A stretch of 64,000 nt of DNA, taken from assembly GCA_938009905.1 (NCBI GenBank), contig CALLGK010000027.1, positions 17,426 through 81,425 on the forward strand, given 5' to 3'. A program made the translations under genes and the position numbers. Origin of the DNA: an uncultured Acidimicrobiales bacterium (GTDB taxonomy: Bacteria > Actinomycetota > Acidimicrobiia > Acidimicrobiales > SZUA-35). How positions within the stretch are numbered: the first letter of the stretch is position 1; the number at the start of each line of letters is the position of its first letter. This document shows positions 3,712 to 54,647 of the stretch, piece after piece. A model generated the notes under the pieces. It worked only from the letters and a program-made list of their open reading frames with translations. It was not told the DNA's origin and did no database searches.

Positions 3712-4394
3712 CAGTGGTGACCTCCGTGATCATCGTGATCGTCAGCAGCTTCGACGGGAGCTGGGTCTTCGTGCTCTTGGCCCGCTTCGGGGGCACGAAC
3801 GCCGTATCCGAGCTCGCCCGACCAGGCGACGCGGTTTTCGTAGTCGGCCCGACCAGCGGGTGCGGTGGCTCGCATCCAACCCGAGGTGAACTGATCTTCA
3901 CCCGGGCGCCAGTCTTCCCACGGAAGGTTCTGTGGCTTGCCATCTTCGCCGACGAGCAGTTCGTCTTTGGTGTAGATGGCGTCGTCGCGATTGGTGAAGC
4001 TGAACTCGAACAGCTTCGTTTCGGTAATCGCTTCGGTCGGGCATGCCTCGACGCAAAGGTCGCAGTGGATGCACCGCAGATAGTTGATTTCGTAGACGAA
4101 GCCGAAGCGCTCACCAGGAGACTTGGGCTCTTCGGGCGGATTCTCGGCCCCGCGGACGTAGATGCACTTGGCCGGGCACACACCAGCGCACAGCTCACAG
4201 CCGATGCATTTCTCCATGCCGTCTTCGTACTTGTTGAGCACGTGGCGGCCGTGAGCCCGAGGCGGCTTTGGCCGCTTCTGGTCGGTCTCGGCTGGCGCTT
4301 CGCCCTTCTTGGCCTTGCCGGCGCGGTATTCCTTGGTGGTGACGCCTTCGCCCCACTTGCGGAGTGTGACGCCGAAACCTTCGAGATAGCCCAT
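3711..4394 (-). CDS. nuoI: NADH-quinone oxidoreductase subunit I (2x[4Fe-4S]) with acidic/His-rich C-terminal tail
   Basis: Two ferredoxin motifs CIGCELCAGVCP and CIHCDLCVEACP; start chosen at ATG 4394-4392 (MGYLEGFGVTLRKW, ATGA overlap with nuoH stop) rather than the 361-aa ORF-track start, whose N-terminus is Arg-rich non-protein-like. Confidence 0.9.
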   Translation of the reverse strand: MGYLEGFGVTLRKWGEGVTTKEYRAGKAKKGEAPAETDQKRPKPPRAHGRHVLNKYEDGMEKCIGCELCAGVCPAKCIYVRGAENPPEEPKSPGERFGFVYEINYLRCIHCDLCVEACPTEAITETKLFEFSFTNRDDAIYTKDELLVGEDGKPQNLPWEDWRPGEDQFTSGWMRATAPAGRADYENRVAWSGELGYGVRAPEAGQEHEDPAPVEAADDHDDHGGHH

Positions 4395-5713
4395 CAGTGA
4401 CCCGCCCCTTCGGTAGAGGAAACCGCGTGGGCGTTCTGAGCCGCCGGTGCGGGAACTGGTGTGAGGTGCAAGCCAGCTTCTTTGAGTCGCTCGTCTCGAG
4501 CGGTGTCCATTGCGGCTCGGAGCAGGGCCCAGCCGACGGCACCGAGAACAAGCGACGCGACAAGCACGAGCGCAACATTTGCGTTGGTGCTGTCGAAGAT
4601 GTTGAGGTCGCCGTTCTGGGCGATGCGGATGCCACCGAGCACGATGAGCCAAAGCAGCGACACGGGAATGAGTGCCTTCCAGCCAAGGTCCATCAGCTGG
4701 TCGTAGCGAAGACGAGGCAGCGTGGCTCGGAACCACACGAAGATGAAGAGGAAGATCAGCAGCTTGCCGAAGAAGAGCACGAAGCCACCGAACCAACCGA
4801 GCGTCGGCATGATGTCGATGAACGGGAAGTCGAACAGAGGCGCCGGGCCACCGAGGAACAGGGTGACGATGAGTCCGCCCATGGTGACCGTGTTCATGAA
4901 CTCGGCAAGGAAGAACAGAGCGAATCGGATCGAGCTGTACTCGGTGTGATAGCCGCCGACGATCTCCTGTTCGGCCTCAACGAGGTCGAAGGGAGGACGG
5001 TTCAGCTCGGCGGTGCCTGCAAGCAAGAACACGATGAACGGCACAAACCCGGTGGCGACGATGTTGAGCTGGCGAAGTGACCCGGACTGGGCCTGGACGA
5101 TCTCGTTCGTGCTCAAGGCGCCAGACACGAGAATGACGGCTGCAATCGACAGACCGAGAGCAGCTTCGTAGGAGATGGCTTGGGCCGAGGCTCGCACGGA
5201 GCCCAGCAGTGGGTACTTCGAGCCCGAGGACCAACCGGCCAGCATGATGCCGTAGATACCGAGCGAGCTCATGGCCAAGAAGAACAGGATGCCGCTGGGG
5301 ATGTCGGCCCCCTGCCACAGAAACTCACGACCGAAGATGGTGGACGAGCCAGCCGTACCGCTTTCCGACACGTTGGAGAAGTCGCCAGCGATGGGGACAA
5401 GCGTGAAGGTGAGGAACGCCGGAATCAGGGAGAGATAGGGGGCGAGCTGAAATACCTTGCGGTCGGCTCGCTCGGGAATCAGATCTTCCTTGAAGAAGAG
5501 CTTGATGCCGTCAGCCAGCGTCTGGAAGAGACCAAACGGACCAGCAATGTTCGGGCCGATGCGGTTCTGCAAGCGGCTGACGACTTTGCGCTCGAACCAC
5601 ACCATGAGCATCGTCGCGATGAGGCACAGCACGAACGAGATCAGCACGATGCCGAGCACGAGCAGTACGTCGCCGAAGTCGACGCCGTCGCGGAGGAATG
5701 GATGTCCACCCAT
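4394..5713 (-). CDS. nuoH: NADH-quinone oxidoreductase subunit H
   Basis: 439-aa polytopic protein; ...ERKVVSRLQNRIGPN..., GWSSGSKYPLLGSVRASAQAISYE, LNRPPFDLVEAEQEIVGGYHTEYS are NuoH/ND1 signatures. Confidence 0.95.
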   Translation of the reverse strand: MGGHPFLRDGVDFGDVLLVLGIVLISFVLCLIATMLMVWFERKVVSRLQNRIGPNIAGPFGLFQTLADGIKLFFKEDLIPERADRKVFQLAPYLSLIPAFLTFTLVPIAGDFSNVSESGTAGSSTIFGREFLWQGADIPSGILFFLAMSSLGIYGIMLAGWSSGSKYPLLGSVRASAQAISYEAALGLSIAAVILVSGALSTNEIVQAQSGSLRQLNIVATGFVPFIVFLLAGTAELNRPPFDLVEAEQEIVGGYHTEYSSIRFALFFLAEFMNTVTMGGLIVTLFLGGPAPLFDFPFIDIMPTLGWFGGFVLFFGKLLIFLFIFVWFRATLPRLRYDQLMDLGWKALIPVSLLWLIVLGGIRIAQNGDLNIFDSTNANVALVLVASLVLGAVGWALLRAAMDTARDERLKEAGLHLTPVPAPAAQNAHAVSSTEGAGH

Positions 5714-22958: not shown

Positions 22959-22992
22959 AAAGCTCGTCCCTTCGCTTCCTGGCGGGCGATTG

Positions 22993-23072
22993 CACTGGGT
23001 CGGCTATCGCCTCCCGCTACTCGCGATCGGGTCACAGCCCTCTCGCTTCGCTCGTCCCTCGCTCCGCGGCAC
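22993..23072. repeat. Dispersed copy of the ~80-bp intergenic repeat seen in triplicate at 42085..42326
   Basis: cactgggtcggctatcgcctcccgctactcgcgatcgggtcac... aligns with cacattgggtctgctgtcgcagaccgctactcgcgatccggaac... (shared core ccgctactcgcgatc); lies between convergent genes. Confidence 0.5.
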
Positions 23073-27643: not shown

Positions 27644-30600
27644 CTAGGCGGTGAGCCGGCGACGGCGGGTACCGAGAACCATCAGGCCACCCAACACCAT
27701 GAGCAATGCGGAGCTGGCGAACCATCGTCCAGCTTCCCCGCCGGTGAAGGCCAATGACGGAGGTGCTGCCACCAGACCGGCATCAATGCCTCGAATGTCG
27801 TCACCTGGATCAATGACGAACGGAGCGGTGACACCGCCACCGTCGACATCGTCGTCGCCGCCATTGCCTGGGGTCAGGATCGTGCCATCGGGCGCCGTGA
27901 TTCTGATTCGGTACATGCCGGGAGGAACGTCCTCGAAGAGGTACGTACCGTTCGCATCAGTGGTCGCGATGATCGGCTTGCCGTTTTGATCGAGAACGGG
28001 ATTGCCGTTCTCGTCGAGCAACTCGACGATGGCACCGGCGTGGGTGCTCTCACCGGGGTCTTGAATGCCATCACGATCAACATCGTCCCAGACCACACCA
28101 CCAACAGAAGCCGTTGGAGGCGTGCCGGTGTAGTGCGAATCATCCGCATCGTCCACCGAAGCCAAAGGTTCGCCGTCTGGACCCATCGTCGGCACGTACG
28201 CCGACGGATCGGTTGGCCACGTCGACGGGTCGGATGGATCAACCGATGGGTCGAGCGCCGGATTGCTGAAGTCTGGTGTGATCGGGTCACCCGACACCGT
28301 TGCCGTGTTCTTGTAGGCACCCTCAACAGCGGTGCCGGTGCCTTCACAGCTCACCGAACCACCAACAGCCAAGAACGGGATCACGTTCGTGCCATCCAAC
28401 ACGCCATCACCATCAACATCACAGTCAACAGTCACCGCAGCGTCAGAATCCGCAACGGTCGCATTCGCGAGCGCCGTGTTTCCGGTGTTGACCACAACGT
28501 AGGTCCACGTCACTGCGTCGCCAGCCAGAATCGTCTCGCCTGGGGCAGTGTCCGACTGAACACCATTGGTGTCCTTCTCGATGTCGATGCCAGCTTCGAA
28601 GCCAACACCCGTGTAGTGAGAATCGTCTGCGTCGGTCACAGGACCAACGGGATTCCCGTCGGGATCGGTCGGCGTCACGTATCCAGCCGGGTCGGCTGGC
28701 CACGTCGTTGGATCGGACGGATCAACTGATGGATCCAAGTCCGGGTCAGTGAAGTCCGGAAGGGCCGGGGCACCAGACACCGTGGCGGTGTTCATGTACG
28801 GACCAGGTGCGGCGATACCGGTGCCTTCACAGGTCACCGAACCACCAACCGCCATGAACGGAATCACGTTCGTTCCGTCCATCACGCCGTCACCATCAAT
28901 GTCGCAGTCGACAACAACAGCAGGGTCGGAATCCACAACGGCGGCATCCAGCAGGGCCGTAGCGCCGGTGTTTGTCACCACGTAGGTCCACGTCACCGGG
29001 TCACCAGCAGCGATGTTCTCGCCCGGCGCCTCATCAGACTGCGCACCGTTGGTGTCCTTCTCGATGTCTACTGACGGCTCAACACCGACGTAGTTCGACG
29101 GATCCTCGTCTTGCACAGTGACCGGCTCGCCAGTCACGGGGTCGGCGTATTCAGCGTAGTCAGCCCGGTCAGTCGGCCACGTGGACGCATCGGTCGGATC
29201 GCACACGCAATCAACGGTCGGCAGCGTCATGTTGCCCGACACCGACGCATTGTTCGAGTACGGGCCTGGACCGGCCACACCAGTCGACTCACATGTCACC
29301 GAGCCACCCGGAATCAGCAGCGGAATCACGTTCGTTGCGTCCATCACGCCGTCACCGTCGATGTCGCAGACAACGGCAACGGACGTTCCCGTGCTGTCAA
29401 CATCGGTCACCGTTGCATCGGTGAGCGCAACCGTGCCGGTATTGGCAACAACGTAGGTCCACGTCACCGCCGCTCCAGCGACGATCGGATTGCCAGGTGC
29501 ATCGTCAGACTGGGCACCGTTGGTGTCCTTCTCGATGTCAACTGACGGCTCAGGATCAATACCGAAATAGTGGGACGGATCCTCTGCACTCGGGTCCTCG
29601 AGCGCCGGCTCACCCGTGACGGGATTCAGCGGCTCGGTATAGGTGGCCGGGTCGGTCGGCCAGGTCGACGGATCAGCGGGGTCAACAGCCGGATCGGAGA
29701 AGTCAGGCAACACCGGGTTGCCGGACACCGTCGAGTTGTTCATGTATTGGCCGGCTTGGGCAACACCTGTGGCCTCACAGGTCACTTCGTCGCCAGGAAC
29801 CAGCAGCGGAACGATGTTGGTGTCGTCGAGAACGCCATCACCGTCAACATCACAGTTGGGCGTCACGGCCGGGTCAGAGTCACCCACAGTGGCGTCAGCC
29901 AGCGCGACATCGCCAGTGTTCTCAACCACGTAGGTCCAGGTCACCGGATCACCGGCGACGATCGTGGCACCAGTCGGCTCATCGGCGTCGAGGCCGTTCG
30001 TGTCCTTCTCAATGTCGATTGCTGGGTCGCAGAACCCGGCCATCACCGACACATCGTTGGATCGGATCGGGAGCAAAAGGCCACTCGTACGAGCGCCGAA
30101 ATTGTTGGTCCAGATGTCGCCACAGGTGGCGCCAACGGTCTCGAGATGAACCTCGATCAACGCGGTTGCACCCTTGTCGAGCGTTCCGAGATCGACGTGA
30201 ACACCTGTCACCTCGCTCGGATCGGTCGGGCACGGGTTGGTGCCGGCGGCCGGGGCAAGACCAGCGGCAACGGCGGTGCCGCCCGCTGGGGAATCACACC
30301 ACGTCGTACCTGAATCAGCAACAGCCGGGTCACGACTGATGGTGGTGGCAAGATCGGCCGTGTAGAGGATCGTGGCTCCGGCTGGGGCGACGGCACCGAG
30401 GAAGTTGAGATCTCCCGTGAACAATGATGGAGGCGTGCGGCCATCGCCCGTCAGAGCCACACCAGTCACGGGGTGACCGGCAGCAGCCGGCTCCGTCGCG
30501 TCGGCGAGGTGCGGCAGCACGTCGATCACTCGGTAGTTCTCGAGATCGACGTTGCCTTCGTTCTCCACATCAAGGGTGAAGACCATGGCGCCGTCGACGG

Positions 30601-39497: not shown

Positions 39498-40283
39498 TTG
39501 GTTGTGACTTCACCCGCACCTCGCCCGAATGGGTCTCGAGCGAGCCGTCTTCAGCCCAAGCATTGGCTCGCAGGAGCTGTCCTAGCCGTTGGCCTAGGCA
39601 CAGCCCCCTTCACTGCCGATTTTGTGAGCGCCGCCATGGCGCCTGCTGCGGCGAACGAAGTCACCGACGAGGCCCAGTACATCGCCTTGATCAACGAGAT
39701 TCGGGCCGAAGCTGGCCTCGAACCATTGCTGGAGCACCCCGAACTCACCGATCAAGCCCGAGTGTGGGCCATCCAGCTCCGCTCAAACGACCAGCTGTCG
39801 CATGCCGGCGACCTGTCAGTCGGTGTGACCGGCAACTGGACAAAGCTCGGTGAGAACGTCGGCGTTGGCCCTTCAGACCAACTGCCCGCGATCTTCGATG
39901 CCTTTGTGGCGAGCCCTGCGCACTACGCAAACCTGATGGACCCAGACTTCCGCTTCATCGGCGTTGGCGTTGTCTACGACGACGAAGGTCGCATGTGGAC
40001 CGCCCATCGGTTCATGGCCGTTGCCCCCAACGACGAAGCGGTCGTGGCCGCCCAGTCGACGGATCGCCAGCCAGACGAGCAACCGGAACCCGAGGTGCTC
40101 GCGTTCGGCTCAGTCGACGAGTTCACCGAAGGGTCAGACGCAGCCCAAGCAGGGGCAGACGCAGCCCAAGCAGGGGCAGATCTCGAGGCAGATGCCGCAA
40201 ACCCCGCTGCTGCCGACGATGGCGACACCGAGACGGTGTTGCTGGCAGACCTGTTCGACCAGCTAGCGAACGAAGGCTTCTAG
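39498..40283 (+). CDS. Secreted CAP/SCP (PR-1-like) domain protein
   Basis: Signal-like N-terminus; ...ALINEIRAEAGLEPL..., ...SHAGD..., GENVG..., SPAHYANLMDPDFRFIGVGV typical CAP domain; start (TTG 39498 or GTG 39504) uncertain. Confidence 0.75.
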   Translation: MVVTSPAPRPNGSRASRLQPKHWLAGAVLAVGLGTAPFTADFVSAAMAPAAANEVTDEAQYIALINEIRAEAGLEPLLEHPELTDQARVWAIQLRSNDQLSHAGDLSVGVTGNWTKLGENVGVGPSDQLPAIFDAFVASPAHYANLMDPDFRFIGVGVVYDDEGRMWTAHRFMAVAPNDEAVVAAQSTDRQPDEQPEPEVLAFGSVDEFTEGSDAAQAGADAAQAGADLEADAANPAAADDGDTETVLLADLFDQLANEGF

Positions 40284-40384: not shown

Positions 40385-41275
40385 TCAGTGCTCCTCGGGT
40401 GGTGGCGGCGTTGTAGTCGGTCGGGCCGTGATGGTGACGGGCGACGCCACTCGTCCAGGACCATCAGCGGCTCGCAAGGTGATCGAGTCGCCTTCGGAGA
40501 GTTCAAGGTCAAAGGCCGCTGACCCTCGGTCGACAGACAGCATCACCAGGCCATGGCTATCGACCAGCAAGCCAATGCTGCCAGTGGGAATCATGCCGAA
40601 GTGATCAACCCGCTGCGCCGTTCTGGTTGAGCGGCCACCGATCACCTCGACGAACTCGGGCCAGTCGTGGAGTTCGGTCGGGTCGACGTTGATTTGGATA
40701 TTGCCGTAGGCATCGATCCACAAAACCTCGCCGGCAATCGAGCCATCGTCGTCTGTCTGGCTCACGGGGAGCACACCGGGCAGGAGCAACGCCGGGTCGA
40801 TGGCCGTGCCGAGCTCGTCTGCTGGGACACCGAGGCACAGGTGGGCGGCGACCGGCGCAAAGATGTCGCGGCCGGCGTTCGTGGCGGCCGGAACGGTGAG
40901 TTGGTAGTCCTCGTTGTCGAGCACGAATGCTGCCGTGGCACCGCCAACGAGCGAAACAGCCGGAGCAAACAGGCCGTTGTCTGGGCCCACCAAGTACGCA
41001 CCACCGTTGGCCACTTCGATGGCGATGGCTTTGCGTTCACTGCCTGCGCCGGGGTCGACAACACCCAGCACCACCCCGGGAGCGAGGTACTGAACCGATC
41101 GAGCAAGGGCGAGGCCTGCCGCTCGCACGTCGTGCGTTTCGATGCCGTGGGTGACATCAACGACTCGCACCTCGGGAGCAAGAGATCGCAGCACGGAGTG
41201 AACGACGCCAACCGATTCGTCGACTGATCCGAAGTCGCTCAGGAACGAGATGGTGTTGAACCGAAGGTCGGTCAT
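40385..41275 (-). CDS. SAM hydrolase / SAM-dependent halogenase family protein (DUF62)
   Basis: ISFLSDFGSVDESVGVVHSVL...VVDVTHGI..HDVRAAGLAL pattern of the S-adenosyl-L-methionine hydroxide adenosyltransferase family; ATGA overlap with proC stop. Confidence 0.8.
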   Translation of the reverse strand: MTDLRFNTISFLSDFGSVDESVGVVHSVLRSLAPEVRVVDVTHGIETHDVRAAGLALARSVQYLAPGVVLGVVDPGAGSERKAIAIEVANGGAYLVGPDNGLFAPAVSLVGGATAAFVLDNEDYQLTVPAATNAGRDIFAPVAAHLCLGVPADELGTAIDPALLLPGVLPVSQTDDDGSIAGEVLWIDAYGNIQINVDPTELHDWPEFVEVIGGRSTRTAQRVDHFGMIPTGSIGLLVDSHGLVMLSVDRGSAAFDLELSEGDSITLRAADGPGRVASPVTITARPTTTPPPPEEH

Positions 41276-42063
41276 GAGCGTCCGAGCTCGGCCGAACGAT
41301 CGGCGGCTGCGGCAACGGCATCGATGAGGGCGCCACGCACACCCCGTTGTTCAAGCACGCGCAAGCCAGCCGCGGTGGTGCCCTTCGGCGTCGTGACATC
41401 ACCACGCAGTTCGCTGGCGGGCTTGTCGCCTTCCATCAGCATGGCGGCTGCACCAGCCATGGTTTGATGCGCCAGGAGCTTGGCTGTTGCTCTGGTGAGA
41501 CCGGCGGCGACGCCAGCATCGACCATCGCTTCGGCAATGAGGAAGTAGTACGCGGGGCCAGACCCAGAAAGTCCGGTAACGGCATCGAGCTGCGCTTCGG
41601 TCACCACGGCAACCGAACCAACCGATGTCAGGAGGCCCTGCGCCCATGCCAGATCGTCGTCGTCGGCATGCGCACCGGGAGCAAGGCCAGACGCACCGTG
41701 GCCCAGGAGCGCTGGCGTGTTGGGCATTACCCGAAGGACGGGCGTTCCGTCCCGAACAACAGCCTCGATCGCCGACGTCGTGATGCCGGCGGCAACCGAC
41801 ATCACTCGACGAGGCGCACTCAGGCTGGATGCCGCAGTCAGGACGAGGTGGGGCTTCACGGCCAGCACGGTGTCGACGGCTTCGGCTGGCTCGTCGGCGA
41901 TCTCGGCGCCCGGAGCAAGTGCAGCCAACTGCTCGGCTCGTGTCGGGTCGATCTCGACAATGCGGATTTCTTCCGCCGCTGCCCAGTTGGCATCGATCAT
42001 GCCCTTGGCGAGTGCAAGCCCCATCTGCCCGCCACCAACCATCTGAATCCGGATGTCGGTCAT
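41272..42063 (-). CDS. proC: Pyrroline-5-carboxylate reductase
   Basis: MVGGGQMGLALAKG NADP fold; ...RVMPNTPALLG..., ...LRGDVTTPKGTTAAGLRVLE signature. Confidence 0.9.
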   Translation of the reverse strand: MTDIRIQMVGGGQMGLALAKGMIDANWAAAEEIRIVEIDPTRAEQLAALAPGAEIADEPAEAVDTVLAVKPHLVLTAASSLSAPRRVMSVAAGITTSAIEAVVRDGTPVLRVMPNTPALLGHGASGLAPGAHADDDDLAWAQGLLTSVGSVAVVTEAQLDAVTGLSGSGPAYYFLIAEAMVDAGVAAGLTRATAKLLAHQTMAGAAAMLMEGDKPASELRGDVTTPKGTTAAGLRVLEQRGVRGALIDAVAAAADRSAELGRS

Positions 42064-42084
42064 GCACGCACGCTATCGCTCGAT

Positions 42085-42326
42085 CACATTGGGTCTGCTG
42101 TCGCAGACCGCTACTCGCGATCCGGAACTTGCTCAGGTCGTGTCAGCTCCGCTGACAACGCTTGCACTTGGGTCCGCTGTCGCAGACCGCTACTCGCGAT
42201 CCGAAACTCGATCAGTGCTTGTCAGCTCCGCTGACCAAGCTTGCACATTGGGTCTGCTGTCGCAGACCGCTCCTCGCGATCCGGAACTCAATCGGGAGGT
42301 TGTCGGCTCCGCTCACAACGCGTGCA
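42085..42326. repeat. Three tandem copies of a ~80-bp intergenic repeat, each with two short hairpins
   Basis: Units start at 42085, 42165, 42244 (cacattgggtctgctgtcgcagaccgctactcgcgatccggaac...gtcagctccgctgacaacgcttg); hairpins GGTCTGC-tgtc-GCAGACC and GTCAGC-tcc-GCTGAC; ~12-bp variable segment in the middle. Confidence 0.85.
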
Positions 42327-42565
42327 CCCGAGCGCGAGGCAAAGCCTGCGTGGCGCCTGAACGCCCCGCCTGGAGGGCAATGACTGAGGGCAGTCAGAGG
42401 GTCAGCCGGGCCGAGCCGGCACGAGGTCTTCCCCGACCCCTTGTGGTCGACACGGCCCGTCTGACGATGAACCAAACCTATCGCCATCATATGCGTTTAA
42501 CTACGCTTATTTACGTTAACGACGTTTCGCGCGGTTGGCCAGCGCCACCACAAGCGAGCAGGCGA

Positions 42566-43036
42566 TCAACCGAACCGTGACGCGAAGCCGATCCGAAGAG
42601 CCGGCCTAAAGAACTGTTCAACCCACACGTACATCGAACCCAAGATCCGATCGAGCTCGTTGGCATCGGCCGCGTGTCGGTCATCAATACGACCCTGCAG
42701 GAAGATCGCTCCTTCTTCGCCGATCGCCAGGCTTGCGCCATAGAGACCGAGGTTGCGCTTCAGCAGGTGGGCGTAAAACTCCGCCTCGTTCTCAATCGGC
42801 GCTGGCATGAGATACGTCTCGTAGCTGAGCGTTCGCTGCTGCAGATCGAAGCGAATCGTGAACACGTCTTTCTCTTCGCCCAACAGGCGAACAAACCACC
42901 GACGACGCTCCTCGGGTAAGCGATCAACAGCATCGACGATCGGGTTCTCTTCGAGCTGTTCGGCAAACCACTGATCGATGAATGCCTCGATGGCATCGAG
43001 CTCGTCGACGGTTCTTGGCGCCGCCGTTGGATCCAT
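42566..43036 (-). CDS. YbjN-like domain protein (conserved partner of mshA in actinobacteria)
   Basis: 156-aa acidic protein; pattern ...VFTIRFDLQQRTLSYETYLMPAP...FYAHLLKRNLGLYGASLAI... fits YbjN/T3SS-chaperone-like fold; immediately downstream of mshA. Confidence 0.65.
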   Translation of the reverse strand: MDPTAAPRTVDELDAIEAFIDQWFAEQLEENPIVDAVDRLPEERRRWFVRLLGEEKDVFTIRFDLQQRTLSYETYLMPAPIENEAEFYAHLLKRNLGLYGASLAIGEEGAIFLQGRIDDRHAADANELDRILGSMYVWVEQFFRPALRIGFASRFG

Positions 43037-43039
43037 CGG

Positions 43040-44296
43040 CTAGATGTCGCTTCCGACCCGAGCTCGGGGAGCCTCGCAGGGCACAGGGCGGCGCTGGGCC
43101 AGCTCGCCGTAGAGATGCCGCAGGCGGGCAGAAGCGGTCGACCATGCGTAGGTGCGAGCTCGGCCGGCGGCGGAGACAGAGAGTCGCCTCGCCAGCACAG
43201 GATCGCCCAAGATGGCATCGGTCCAGGCTGCGTATTCGTCTGGGTCGCGGCTCTCAACGAGGTAACCGGTGCGTCCGTGCTCAACGAGGGTGAGAAGACC
43301 ACCAACCGCTGATGCCACAACGGGCACGCCGCACGCCGCAGCTTCGAGCGCAACAAGCCCGAATGACTCAGAGCGACTGGGCACCAAGCACACATCGGCG
43401 GCCCGGTAGAACGTCGAGAGCAAGTGGTGCGGCTGGGGCGGAACGAACCGGACTCGATCTTCGAGGCCTTCGTCAGAGATCATCTGGCGAATGCGATCAA
43501 CCTCGGTTGAGCCGCCTTGGCCTGAGGCCCCGCCGACGATCCAGAGCCGAGCGTCGTCGCGTTCGAGCTTGGCCAACGTGCCAACAGCAACGTCGACGCC
43601 CTTGAGGGGCTGGATCCGGCCGACAAACAACAGCAATGGTCGGTCGTCGGTTTGCAGCGCCCAGCGGGCACCGGCCTGGTTACCAGGTGAGAAGTAGGCG
43701 TGATCGACGCCGGGTGGCACGATCTCGATGCGGTCTGGATCGGCGTCGTAGTACTGCTCGAGCTGTTCGGCTTCAGCTGAACAGTTCGCGAGCACGGCAT
43801 CAGCACAGGCCATCACTTCGGCCTCGGCTCGGGCCCGACGTTCTGGCTCAGGATCGCCCGTCATGGCTTTCACTCGCGCCAACGTGTGGAACGTGGTGAC
43901 AAGGGGAACGCCGAGTCGACGCTTCAACATCTGACCGGCAACGCCAGAGAGCCAGTAGTTGGCGTGCAAAACATCTGGCTTGAACTCGGCAAGATCGATC
44001 GCCACTTGGTCGGCGAAGTCGGTAACCAGCGGCTCGAGTTCTTCCTTTGAAGCTTCAAACGGACCGGCGGTGACGTGCACCACTTCGAAGCCCGGCTCGA
44101 CCAAGACCCGCTCGGGAAGATCGGCTCTCCAACGGCGCACATAGACCCGGCACTGCACGCCAGCCTGGGCCAACGACGTAACGAGTTCGCGCACGTAGAC
44201 ATTCATGCCACCGCCGTCGCCAGTGCCCGGTTGGGCCAGCGGAGAGGTGTGAAGTGAGAGAACTGCGACTCGACGCACGAAGGGTTCCAACCTCAA
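43040..44296 (-). CDS. mshA: D-inositol-3-phosphate glycosyltransferase (GT4, MshA-type)
   Basis: RRVAVLSLHTSPLAQPGTGDGGGMNVYVRELV N-terminal signature of MshA; C-terminal GT4 E..FGLVALEAAACGVPVVA motif. Confidence 0.8.
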   Translation of the reverse strand: MRLEPFVRRVAVLSLHTSPLAQPGTGDGGGMNVYVRELVTSLAQAGVQCRVYVRRWRADLPERVLVEPGFEVVHVTAGPFEASKEELEPLVTDFADQVAIDLAEFKPDVLHANYWLSGVAGQMLKRRLGVPLVTTFHTLARVKAMTGDPEPERRARAEAEVMACADAVLANCSAEAEQLEQYYDADPDRIEIVPPGVDHAYFSPGNQAGARWALQTDDRPLLLFVGRIQPLKGVDVAVGTLAKLERDDARLWIVGGASGQGGSTEVDRIRQMISDEGLEDRVRFVPPQPHHLLSTFYRAADVCLVPSRSESFGLVALEAAACGVPVVASAVGGLLTLVEHGRTGYLVESRDPDEYAAWTDAILGDPVLARRLSVSAAGRARTYAWSTASARLRHLYGELAQRRPVPCEAPRARVGSDI

Positions 44297-49146: not shown

Positions 49147-49221
49147 GCCCCTGTGGCGCAGCCTGGTTAGCGCAGTGGACTTTTAATCCATTGGTCGTGG
49201 GTTCGAATCCCACCGGGGGCA
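49147..49221 (+). tRNA. tRNA-Lys (anticodon UUU)
   Basis: Hand-folded cloverleaf: acceptor GCCCCTG/CGGGGGC, D-arm GCGC-agcctggttag-GCGC, anticodon arm GTGGA-CTTTTAA-TCCAT, T-arm GTGGG-TTCGAAT-CCCAC, discriminator A. Confidence 0.9.
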
Positions 49222-49312
49222 CGTGGAATCATTGTGAAGCCCTCGTGGCCGATAAGGATTCCTACAAGCCAGTTTCAACGAACGAAGATCGAACGTAGCG
49301 CCGGAGCCCAAC

Positions 49313-53714: not shown

Positions 53715-54647
53715 TCAGCTCGCCACCAGTGGCTTGTCAGCCTTGGCCGCTCGTCGTTCCTTCATGCGGGCCGCAACACGACCGGTCTTTTCGATGTAGG
53801 TCATCAGCCGTTCCTGGGCCTGTGCACCATCGCCGTCGAGGCCCTCGATATTGGCGATGTCCCAGAATCCGAGCACCACTGGCTCGAGGATGCCTTCGTA
53901 GTGATTCACGAAGTCGTAGATGCCAGCGTTTGCGATCAGCTTCGAGTGACCAGCAAAATCGGGAATGCCGGTGCCCGGCATCGCAAACCCAGTGACCTGG
54001 CGTTCGAGCGCCTGCATCATCTGAGACGGATCGCGCTCAAAGCCGGCCTGCGCGATGTCGCGATAGAAGAGGAAGTGGAAGTTCTCGTCGATCGCGACCC
54101 GGCGCATGATGTCGTAGCCAACTCGATCGTGGGGCTCGATGGCCCGACCGGTGTTGCGGTGCGAGATGCGGGTGGCGAGCTCTTGCAACGTCACGTAACA
54201 CATGCCGTCTGCCGCCGTTGGTGGCTCTGGCACCTCGCCTCCAGACATCTGTGCCATGCGACCCCGTTCGAGCTCGACCGGATCGATCGATCGGCTCACG
54301 GTGAGGTAGTCGCGAATGACCGTGGCGTGCCGGCCTTCTTCAGCCGTCCAGCGCCGGACCCACTCACCCCACGCTCCGTCGGCACCAAACATACGCTCGA
54401 TGTCGCGGAAGTAGTACGGGAGGTTGTCTTCGGTCAGCAGATTGACGAACAGCGCACTGCGGACCTCGGCGGGAAGATTCGCTTCGTCTGGTGACCATTC
54501 GTAGTCGTCTTCGAAGTCGCGTCCTCGGCTCCACGGCACGAAGGTGTGCGGGTGCCATTCTTTGACTTGACTGATGTGTCGTTCGAGAAGCTGCTCGGCG
54601 ACAGGATGAAGATCGTCCAGAAACGCAACGTCGGTGTCGTTGACCAT
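53715..54647 (-). CDS. Acyl-ACP desaturase (soluble di-iron, DesA-type)
   Basis: ...NLLTEDNLPYY..., WVRRWTAEEGRHATVIRDYL (EExRH di-iron motif), ...TLQELATRISHRNT... Confidence 0.85.
   Translation of the reverse strand: MVNDTDVAFLDDLHPVAEQLLERHISQVKEWHPHTFVPWSRGRDFEDDYEWSPDEANLPAEVRSALFVNLLTEDNLPYYFRDIERMFGADGAWGEWVRRWTAEEGRHATVIRDYLTVSRSIDPVELERGRMAQMSGGEVPEPPTAADGMCYVTLQELATRISHRNTGRAIEPHDRVGYDIMRRVAIDENFHFLFYRDIAQAGFERDPSQMMQALERQVTGFAMPGTGIPDFAGHSKLIANAGIYDFVNHYEGILEPVVLGFWDIANIEGLDGDGAQAQERLMTYIEKTGRVAARMKERRAAKADKPLVAS

Follow-up and report, generated by a model that had tools for sequence, protein, structure and literature searches.

The question raised by the stretch of DNA analyzed here, 64,000 nucleotides from an uncultured Acidimicrobiales bacterium (GenBank assembly GCA_938009905.1, contig CALLGK010000027.1, positions 17,426 to 81,425; hereafter the window), is what the three tandem hairpin-bearing units of about 80 bp upstream of proC represent. 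The original prediction, which was made from the sequence alone, had proposed a structured element resembling repetitive extragenic palindromes (REPs) or miniature inverted-repeat transposable elements (MITEs), or else a small-RNA or protein-binding module. The analysis showed that the units belong to a dispersed, mosaic, hairpin-centered family of intergenic repeats, which is constrained in sequence, was inserted in a lineage-specific manner, and was locally amplified in tandem. With a confidence only slightly better than even, we assign this family to the REP type or that of interspersed mosaic elements of bacteria (BIMEs), in which short G+C-rich extragenic palindromes are arranged in mosaic composite units.

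Read on the minus strand, the conserved module of the family is ATCGCGA-GTAG-C-GGTCTGC-GACA-GCAGACC-CAATGTG, in which the tetranucleotide GTAG (the tag) precedes a hairpin (hairpin 1). In the proC array and in a copy at locus L003 (loci on other contigs carry L numbers), the module is followed by a variable linker and a second, bulged hairpin (hairpin 2), which gives "type A" units of about 80-85 bp ending in TGCA. Tandem Repeats Finder (TRF) placed the array of the window at 42085-42327 (period 79, 3.0 copies, 85% matches, score 351), and a repeat search of the window found the three copies in register at spacings of 79 and 80 bp, so that the three near-identical tandem units first predicted were borne out. 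The features of the array are as follows.

42085 to 42164, minus strand (the strand bearing GTAG): unit 1, a composite of REP module, linker, and hairpin 2; 51.8 bits in nhmmer
42165 to 42243, minus strand: unit 2, found by TRF and the repeat search; 44.0 bits in nhmmer
42244 to 42326, minus strand: unit 3, with the tag mutated to GGAG and hairpin 2 degraded; 48.1 bits in nhmmer
42092 to 42109: hairpin 1 of unit 1, GGTCTGC-tgtc-GCAGACC, with 7 perfect pairs in the sequence and the fold; equivalents at 42171-42188 and 42251-42268
42108 to 42122, plus strand: invariant core CCGCTACTCGCGATC; also at 42187-42201, 42267-42281 (1 mismatch), and 23014-23028
42111 to 42114, minus strand: GTAG tag of unit 1, 1 nt 5' of the foot of hairpin 1; equivalents at 42190-42193 (unit 2) and 42270-42273 (unit 3, GGAG)
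42123 to 42141: variable linker (the "patch") of unit 1, which separates the REP module from hairpin 2
42139 to 42160: hairpin 2 of unit 1, CGT-GTCAGC-tcc-GCTGAC-a-ACG; equivalents at 42217-42240 (unit 2) and 42302-42316 (unit 3, degraded)

The three units were 83-88% identical to one another, and 10 of the 20 linker columns varied among them versus 8 of 61 elsewhere (Fisher p = 0.0014), in agreement with the central variable patch of about 12 bp described before. The linker of unit 1 was similar to that of the L051 copy in another genome. The 15-nt core CCGCTACTCGCGATC, with up to two mismatches allowed, occurred at four sites in the 64 kb against 0.28 expected, and none of 100 shuffles reached four. 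Successive units joined directly and without a gap (...GCTTGCA/CATTGG...), and TGCA also closed unit 3, as it did the single copy L003. Contig L132, which came from a different sample and was 99.56% identical to the window over 11,855 bp, carried the same three units with zero differences. Consequently, the array is not an assembly artefact, and the mis-assembled collapsed repeat that had been considered a danger to the prediction is excluded.

The array is non-coding: its period of 79/80 is not a multiple of three, stop codons were present in some frames of the units, and the concatenated six-frame translations of the units, searched to detect spurious ORFs over other copies, matched no protein at E ≤ 10. 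This agrees with the earlier view that the region holds no convincing open reading frame (ORF), and annotators are cautioned against the repeat-driven ORFs at 42053-42580. A coding mini-domain was rejected as a candidate because the reading frame shifts between units. A CRISPR array was also rejected, as the variable patch of about 12-20 nt lies inside an 80-nt repeat and copies also occur singly.

The canonical REP rule calls for a hairpin that has a tetranucleotide, GTAG or GTGG, 0-2 nt away on its 5' side; the basal 7-20 nt of the hairpin stem are fully paired, at least three of the first four basal bases are G/C, and the loop has 2-5 nt (PMC6006769). In the module, the GTAG tag was found within this distance (GT[AG]G 0-2 nt from the foot), the stem was GGTCTGC/GCAGACC with GGTC as its first four basal bases, and the loop had 3-4 nt (GACA or GAA). 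Units 1 and 2 carried the string GTAG-C-stem on the minus strand, as did all other copies compared (d4, the dispersed copy of the window, L003, L027, L051, L099, and both copies of L136), while unit 3 had GGAG. A scan with the rule recovered unit 1, L003, L051, and both L136 copies; d4 had a decayed stem, L027 a stem of 6 bp, and L099 a stem lengthened by an inner one of 7 bp. GTAG REPs have been described with stems of 6-13 bp, loops of 2-4 nt, and subfamilies with complementary stem changes. In some families, a spacer separates the tag from the stem, and a short motif is conserved beyond the stem; partners lie 20-100 bp apart, and sites downstream of genes and between unidirectional or convergent ORFs are favored (PMC3733652). 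The present family agrees with this description on each of these points.

Copies of the family outside the array were sought by a pattern scan with TCGCNNNCCGCTNCTCGCGATC in one genome per species, which returned at least 116 stretches. Four of these were true copies, and the other matches listed were chance matches without the hairpin or the flanks. At least four true copies thus lie on three contigs of the metagenome-assembled genome (MAG) CALJSB01 ("uncultured Acidimicrobiales bacterium R1_Bin_METABAT__39_1"). With a profile of the 41-nt module, the true copies scored 37-52 bits and all other matches in the search remained below 20 bits. The true copies numbered at least 11: eight at 37-52 bits, two in tandem in L136 (40.7 bits), and one in L137 (40.7 bits), which is the same locus as L136 from another sample. 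The copies outside the array that were placed individually are as follows.

22987 to 23072 of the window, minus strand: dispersed copy d4, with GTAG at 23017-23020 (minus strand) and the decayed stem GGTCGGC-tatc-GCCTCCC; 37.5 bits in nhmmer
L003, MAG CALJSB01: 8 nt past the stop codon of a metallophosphoesterase gene, convergent with pcrA
L051, MAG CALJSB01: between purH and metF
L099, MAG CALJSB01: between fdhD and a hemQ-like gene
L027, MAG CALJSB01: upstream of a small gene, in a divergent region beside rpsF

Copy d4 starts 35 nt past the stop codon of a plus-strand, DUF4214 protease-like gene that is convergent with hemL. It corresponds to the fourth, diverged copy that had been predicted between the protease and hemL genes, and it does share the core CCGCTACTCGCGATC. 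Its first 45 nt (5') were about 80% identical to a unit and diverged thereafter into a "type B" tail, CTCTCGCTTCGCTCGTCCCTCGCTCCGCG. Type B units (d4, L027) carry a C/T-rich tail after the module, and this tail was 94.5% identical over 55 nt between the two copies at unrelated loci. L003 matched the proC units in its composite structure, from the module through the linker and the bulged hairpin 2 to the end ...GCTTGCA, and in L051 a linker like that of unit 1 was joined to the C/T-rich tail motif. All seven loci were intergenic, five of them 8-38 nt past a stop codon. The elements belong to intergenic DNA, and at least three Acidimicrobiales lineages carry them at unrelated loci. A search for further copies in relatives had been proposed as a check, and the non-syntenic intergenic sites of MAG CALJSB01 supplied them. 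A second recurrent motif, GCTCGTCCCT(T)CGC, was observed on one or both sides of the REP module, at the following sites.

22963 to 22981 and 23050 to 23062 of the window: GCTCGTCCCT(T)CGC
877 to 889 of L027: GCTCGTCCCT(T)CGC
4978 to 4990 and 5063 to 5075 of L051: GCTCGTCCCT(T)CGC

Directly past the protease stop codon, the GCTCGTCCCT motif forms the loop of a small hairpin with the stem GAAAGC/GCTTCC in the window versus GTCGAGC/GCTCGAC in L136.

The history of the elements could be followed by comparing orthologous loci. The proC array was present only in the lineage of the window and absent from relatives with ProC proteins 86%, 83%, and 75% identical: the spacer upstream of proC in L133 (ProC 75%) had 179 nt and no element, that of L142 (ProC 83%) had about 250 nt and no array, and no element occurred in the 127 nt available for L135 (ProC 86%). 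The array is therefore a lineage-specific insertion and not part of a conserved proC leader. At the place of the array, L142 has a different, perfect 16-bp palindrome at about 697-733 (GGCAGATTCCTGCACG-acatc-CGTGCAGGAATCTGCC), which is unrelated in sequence. The spacer upstream of proC seems to be a hot spot for palindromic insertions.

At the hemL/protease locus, two tandem copies with an 82-bp period and perfect stems (GGTCTGC-GAA-GCAGACC) were found in L136 and L137 (HemL 91% identical), versus a single copy with a decayed stem in the window. L140 (HemL 85%) had no copy at this locus or elsewhere in 21 kb. The duplication in L136 takes in local flanking DNA. The elements are thus gained, lost, and locally amplified, with zero versus three copies at proC and one versus two at hemL, and these differences could serve as markers similar to a variable number of tandem repeats (VNTR). 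Contig L137 ends (at 5583) inside the second REP hairpin, and the short-read contigs of L137, L138, L139, L141, and L144, which came from different samples, all end either 28-65 nt past the hemL stop codon or in the second REP hairpin. Such breaks are the behavior expected of a multi-copy repeat, and the elements account for contig breaks in short-read assemblies of this clade. In L141 (HemL 84%), three tandem copies of the 13-mer CCTCGTTCACCGG were observed directly past the hemL stop codon (3950-4000). No exact-protein match was on record for the window ProC, for the 793-aa ORF at 434-2815, or for a 100%-identical HemL.

Third-codon identity was 52% for hemL between the window and L136 and 41-43% for proC versus the other lineages, which indicates that neutral sites are essentially saturated. 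Nevertheless, the 38-nt module was 82-97% identical between non-orthologous copies of different lineages, and the most divergent copy was the orthologous hemL site of the window (71-76%). The module is therefore strongly selected, constantly replenished from a conserved source, or both.

Hairpin 1 was perfect in units 1 and 3, and in unit 2 it had one C.A mismatch on the plus strand, which is a G.U pair on the minus strand. Hairpin 2, which is lengthened by 3-4 extra pairs past a one-base bulge, remained intact in the first two units, and unit 3 carried a degraded version. Both hairpins had been predicted to be partly degraded in units 2 and 3; both units are indeed affected, but only one hairpin in each. 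Over eight copies, 92.9% of the hairpin 1 cells were paired, with one pair changed on both sides in two copies; over four copies, 90% of the hairpin 2 cells were paired, with compensatory changes in three pairs. In L099, a perfect 7-bp palindrome was inserted in the loop of hairpin 1 and lengthened the stem. Hence, the stems hold their pairing across a few double changes and one palindromic loop insertion. The array folded more stably than shuffles (z = -3.4 as RNA of the minus strand and z = -2.2 as DNA of the plus strand), and its minimum free energy folds retained the local hairpins.

Among known systems, the family comes closest to the GTAG REPs, BIMEs, and REPINs (REP doublets forming hairpins) of Proteobacteria, Cyanobacteria, Chloroflexi, and the PVC group (Planctomycetes, Verrucomicrobia, and Chlamydiae), which carry the same tag 1 nt from a 7-bp stem with a loop of 3-4 nt (PMC3733652, PMC6006769). 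Like these, the family is extragenic and lies mostly just past genes between convergent or co-oriented ORFs, has subfamilies with complementary stem changes and a second stem-loop 20-30 nt away, forms tandem clusters, sometimes together with flanking DNA, and is kept across related species. The part of the prediction that spoke of a REP-like structured element spread through intergenic regions is therefore favored by the REP rule, the unrelated contexts, and the varying copy number at orthologous loci.

By analogy with REP/RAYT (REP-associated tyrosine transposase) and IS200/IS605 systems, and as in proteobacterial REPs, a Y1 (HUH) transposase of the RAYT/IS200 type may recognize the GTAG-tagged hairpin in single-stranded DNA and would copy or maintain the elements. 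Since the units abut directly and L003 ends in the same TGCA, the head-to-tail arrays probably grow by local re-insertion or unequal exchange. The TGCA/TCA beside the 5' end might, speculatively, be an insertion target or simply part of the element. Once transcribed, the hairpins may act as passive RNA structures at gene ends, where they would protect 3' ends or cause partial termination. REP/RAYT systems, which occur mainly in Proteobacteria, are regarded as long-lived "replicators" with vertical inheritance, and in the arrangement known as a REPtron, the cognate RAYT (TnpA_REP) gene is flanked by the same REPs. It is possible, though we put this forward only tentatively, that the family is the first REP-type system of Actinomycetota, with near-invariant GTAG palindromes, an undescribed domesticated Y1 enzyme or no RAYT at all, and self-targeted head-to-tail insertion. 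If true, a canonical GTAG-hairpin family in uncultured Acidimicrobiales would extend the range of REPs and point to a Y1 transposase or another maintenance mechanism in these genomes.

Several observations weigh against an assignment to the REP/BIME type. Typical GTAG REPs reach more than 100 copies per genome; the fragments sampled here had about one locus per 25-30 kb, with two loci in the 64 kb of the window, a single one in the 20.6 kb of L136, and none in L133 (19.6 kb) or L140 (21 kb), besides at least four in MAG CALJSB01. A scan of metagenome contigs (Joint Genome Institute, JGI) with TGGGTCN{9,39}CCGCTACTCGCGATC returned 12 stretches, all due to chance; L126, a metagenome match, was dropped as such. 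The covariation statistics were weak, as 20 of 500 shuffles for hairpin 1 and 38 of 500 for hairpin 2 matched the observed values, since just eight and four sequences were available; the compensatory stem changes on which the prediction depended were thus seen, in small number, but with weak support against shuffles. The tag itself could be coincidental: it has a chance of about 5% of accompanying a random 7-bp hairpin by our own estimate (both tetranucleotides, three offsets, and both strands), and because it sits inside a longer invariant block, its conservation is non-specific. The conserved unpaired flanks (8 and 13 nt) exceed those of described REPs, from which the family differs by the longer invariant sequences ATCGCGA before the tag and CAATGTG after the stem.

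The arrangement of the hairpins is a further difference. Hairpin 2 loosely resembles an inverted hairpin 1 (TTGGTCAGC vs TTGGGTCTGC); since it is untagged and no true inverted copy, the unit is not a REPIN-type doublet, and two inverted REPs pairing as one long hairpin were not found. The arrays run head-to-tail instead of forming inverted doublets, an arrangement that is rare among REP dimers (PMC3733652). The family also sits in Actinomycetota, and no RAYT was found in the scanned DNA: six-frame translations of about 230 kb of related loci, a search that was not genome-wide, contained no HUH...YxxxNP motif. Neither the 2013 (PMC3733652) nor the 2018 (PMC6006769) survey reports REPs or RAYTs in Actinobacteria; the latter assigned only IS200-type Y1 transposases to Actinobacteridae, and Actinobacteria went unmentioned in the 2013 REP survey, a 2017 RAYT paper, and the other REPIN/RAYT literature searched.

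The alternative that survives best, although we consider it unlikely, is a cis-acting RNA element, i.e., a stabilizer in the 3' untranslated or intercistronic region, a processing or termination site, or a place where an RNA-binding protein or sRNA docks, which would be maintained by selection on the RNA and spread by recombination without a dedicated transposase. Such an element would fit the strong sequence constraint, the G.U-compatible substitutions such as that on the minus strand of unit 2, and the location of the module, which lies in sense orientation 8-38 nt past the stop codon at five of the six loci with a nearby upstream gene end (d4, L136, L003, L051, and L099). This orientation bias was not significant, however (about four of five independent loci). 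Relative to the other copies, the proC array is antisense, and the site of L027 is a divergent promoter region. Scans for promoters and U-tract terminators found nothing at either window locus (the proC array and d4), neither of which showed an intrinsic terminator, and Rfam 15 at its gathering threshold gave no match to the repeat units of the window. The lack of promoter, terminator, and Rfam signals counts against an RNA element in general, and together with the inconsistent orientation to genes, it leaves the small RNA proposed earlier unsupported. Moreover, a function at the RNA level leaves dispersal and amplification unexplained. It is nevertheless compatible with, and not exclusive of, a REP-type family, as REPs in general are thought to work as RNA hairpins (PMC3733652).

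It is less probable still that the units are a duplex DNA site (GATCGCGAGTAGC...CAATGTG) for a nucleoid-associated or regulatory protein, which would bind cooperatively to the tandem units upstream of proC. A protein site would fit the unpaired flanks, invariant in sequence while the stems may change, and the position of the array directly against the proC core promoter, and IHF, gyrase, and Pol I are known BIME-binding proteins (background in PMC6006769). However, the genes flanking the seven loci have no common function, and of the five independent single-copy loci (d4 and L136 count as one orthologous locus), four are at the 3' ends of genes instead of promoters. The compensatory stem changes and the palindrome inserted in the loop indicate retention of a folded single strand, and not of a duplex motif; with the unrelated neighboring genes, they make a duplex site hard to reconcile with the data.

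We regard a MITE, i.e., a deletion derivative of an insertion sequence (IS) with a DDE transposase that is mobilized in trans via terminal inverted repeats, as very improbable. The small size, intergenic location, several copies, and presence/absence polymorphism would suit it, as would a weak inverted similarity of the ends (TTGGGTCTGC vs reverse complement GCTTGGTCAGC). The MITE part of the original prediction was nevertheless not upheld: comparing the flanks of the seven loci by eye revealed neither a target-site duplication nor, apart from a weak TTGG(G)TC similarity, a terminal inverted repeat of more than about 7 nt. In addition, the copies share only the 5' module and differ in their 3' parts, which describes a mosaic and not an element with two fixed ends, and BLASTN of the array against plasmids and phages found no match. 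A scan of viral contigs gave three matches, all due to chance.

The weakest alternative, a neutral local VNTR or assembly artefact with a chance resemblance at 23 kb, would account for the tandem organization and the 83-88% unit identity, but it is scarcely credible given the identical array in an independent assembly, the true copies at unrelated loci in other genomes, the enrichment of the core over chance, and the confinement of variation to the linker.

Among other known elements, the ends of IS200/IS605 and of their miniature derivatives, palindrome-associated transposable elements (PATEs), share with the family a subterminal hairpin and a short conserved "guide" by its foot, acting as single-stranded DNA. 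Unlike IS200/IS605 ends, the Acidimicrobiales units are about 80 bp long, have no tnpA/tnpB nearby, and show no distinct left and right ends. Mycobacterial interspersed repetitive units (MIRUs), the classical intergenic tandem repeats of actinobacteria, are units of 40-100 bp between co-oriented genes, the copy number of which varies between strains or lineages; they are described without dyad symmetry and with short ORFs coupled to the flanking genes. The present units are likewise intergenic and tandem, occur in an actinobacterium, and vary in copy number between lineages. In contrast to MIRUs, they are based on hairpins (two per unit), repeat every 79/80 bp, and are found singly at dispersed sites as well, so that neither the lack of dyad symmetry nor the in-phase unit ORFs of a MIRU-type VNTR were found. 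BOX elements of Streptococcus pneumoniae combine a fixed module with a variable number of tandem internal modules into stable intergenic hairpins. The Acidimicrobiales family is similarly modular, mosaic, hairpin-forming, and intergenic, but it belongs to another phylum, has a different module grammar, and has no sequence relationship with BOX.

The best protein matches bore names such as Acidimicrobiales or Acidimicrobiia bacterium, so that the host is an uncultured member of this actinobacterial class. The neighborhood of the array was annotated by Pfam from near-identical and related loci. On the minus strand, mshA (43040-44296) is followed by the YbjN-family gene (42566-43036), a 503-nt spacer with the array, proC (41272-42063), and a gene similar to S-adenosylmethionine (SAM) hydroxide adenosyltransferase. 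Two features border the array.

42070 to 42075, minus strand: TAGCGT, 6 nt upstream of the proC ATG (42063-42061); a candidate -10 box abutted by unit 1
42400 to 42466, minus strand: long imperfect hairpin between ybjN and the array, ATCGTCAGACGGG...GGGGTCGGGGAAGACCT...CCCGGCTGACC

In the window, L135, L142, and L133, which represent four lineages, TAGCGT stands 6-8 nt before the proC ATG and a Shine-Dalgarno sequence is absent. This conservation suggests that proC is transcribed as a leaderless mRNA from its own promoter adjoining unit 1. Relatives without the array retain the long hairpin, which delimits the inserted DNA on its upstream side; RNAalifold predicted 25 pairs, six with compensatory changes, from four sequences of four lineages, and a conserved AT-rich, promoter-like stretch (42480-42535) precedes it. 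Since the array lies between two conserved features, it looks like inserted DNA and not like a proC regulator. Under the REP/BIME assignment, it would be a structured spacer placed between the ybjN-side hairpin and the proC core promoter. The array had been assigned to the presumed 5' region of proC; it does lie upstream of this gene, but its orientation is opposite to that of most single copies and it does not belong to a conserved leader.

An Rfam search of 41950-42650 at E ≤ 10 returned only sRNA-Xcc1 (E = 4.7, 17 bits vs a gathering threshold of 53), outside the array. The long hairpin, which matched no Rfam family, is a candidate for an undescribed structured RNA or for the terminator of the mshA-ybjN unit. 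Elsewhere in the window, a match to the Rfam small RNA ASdes was observed at 54271-54338 on the plus strand (48.1 bits vs a gathering threshold of 40), and a tRNA-Lys(UUU) at 49147-49222. A very large ORF contains four to five tandem coding repeats at 28125-30016 (period about 483 bp, 66-80% identical), and at related loci the gene with these repeats is annotated as a CLIPPER/SdrD_B repeat protein. In a CAP-domain gene, positions 40130-40180 hold a tandem repeat of 21 bp (2.4 copies, 96% matches) that encodes a repeated AQAGADA-like peptide.

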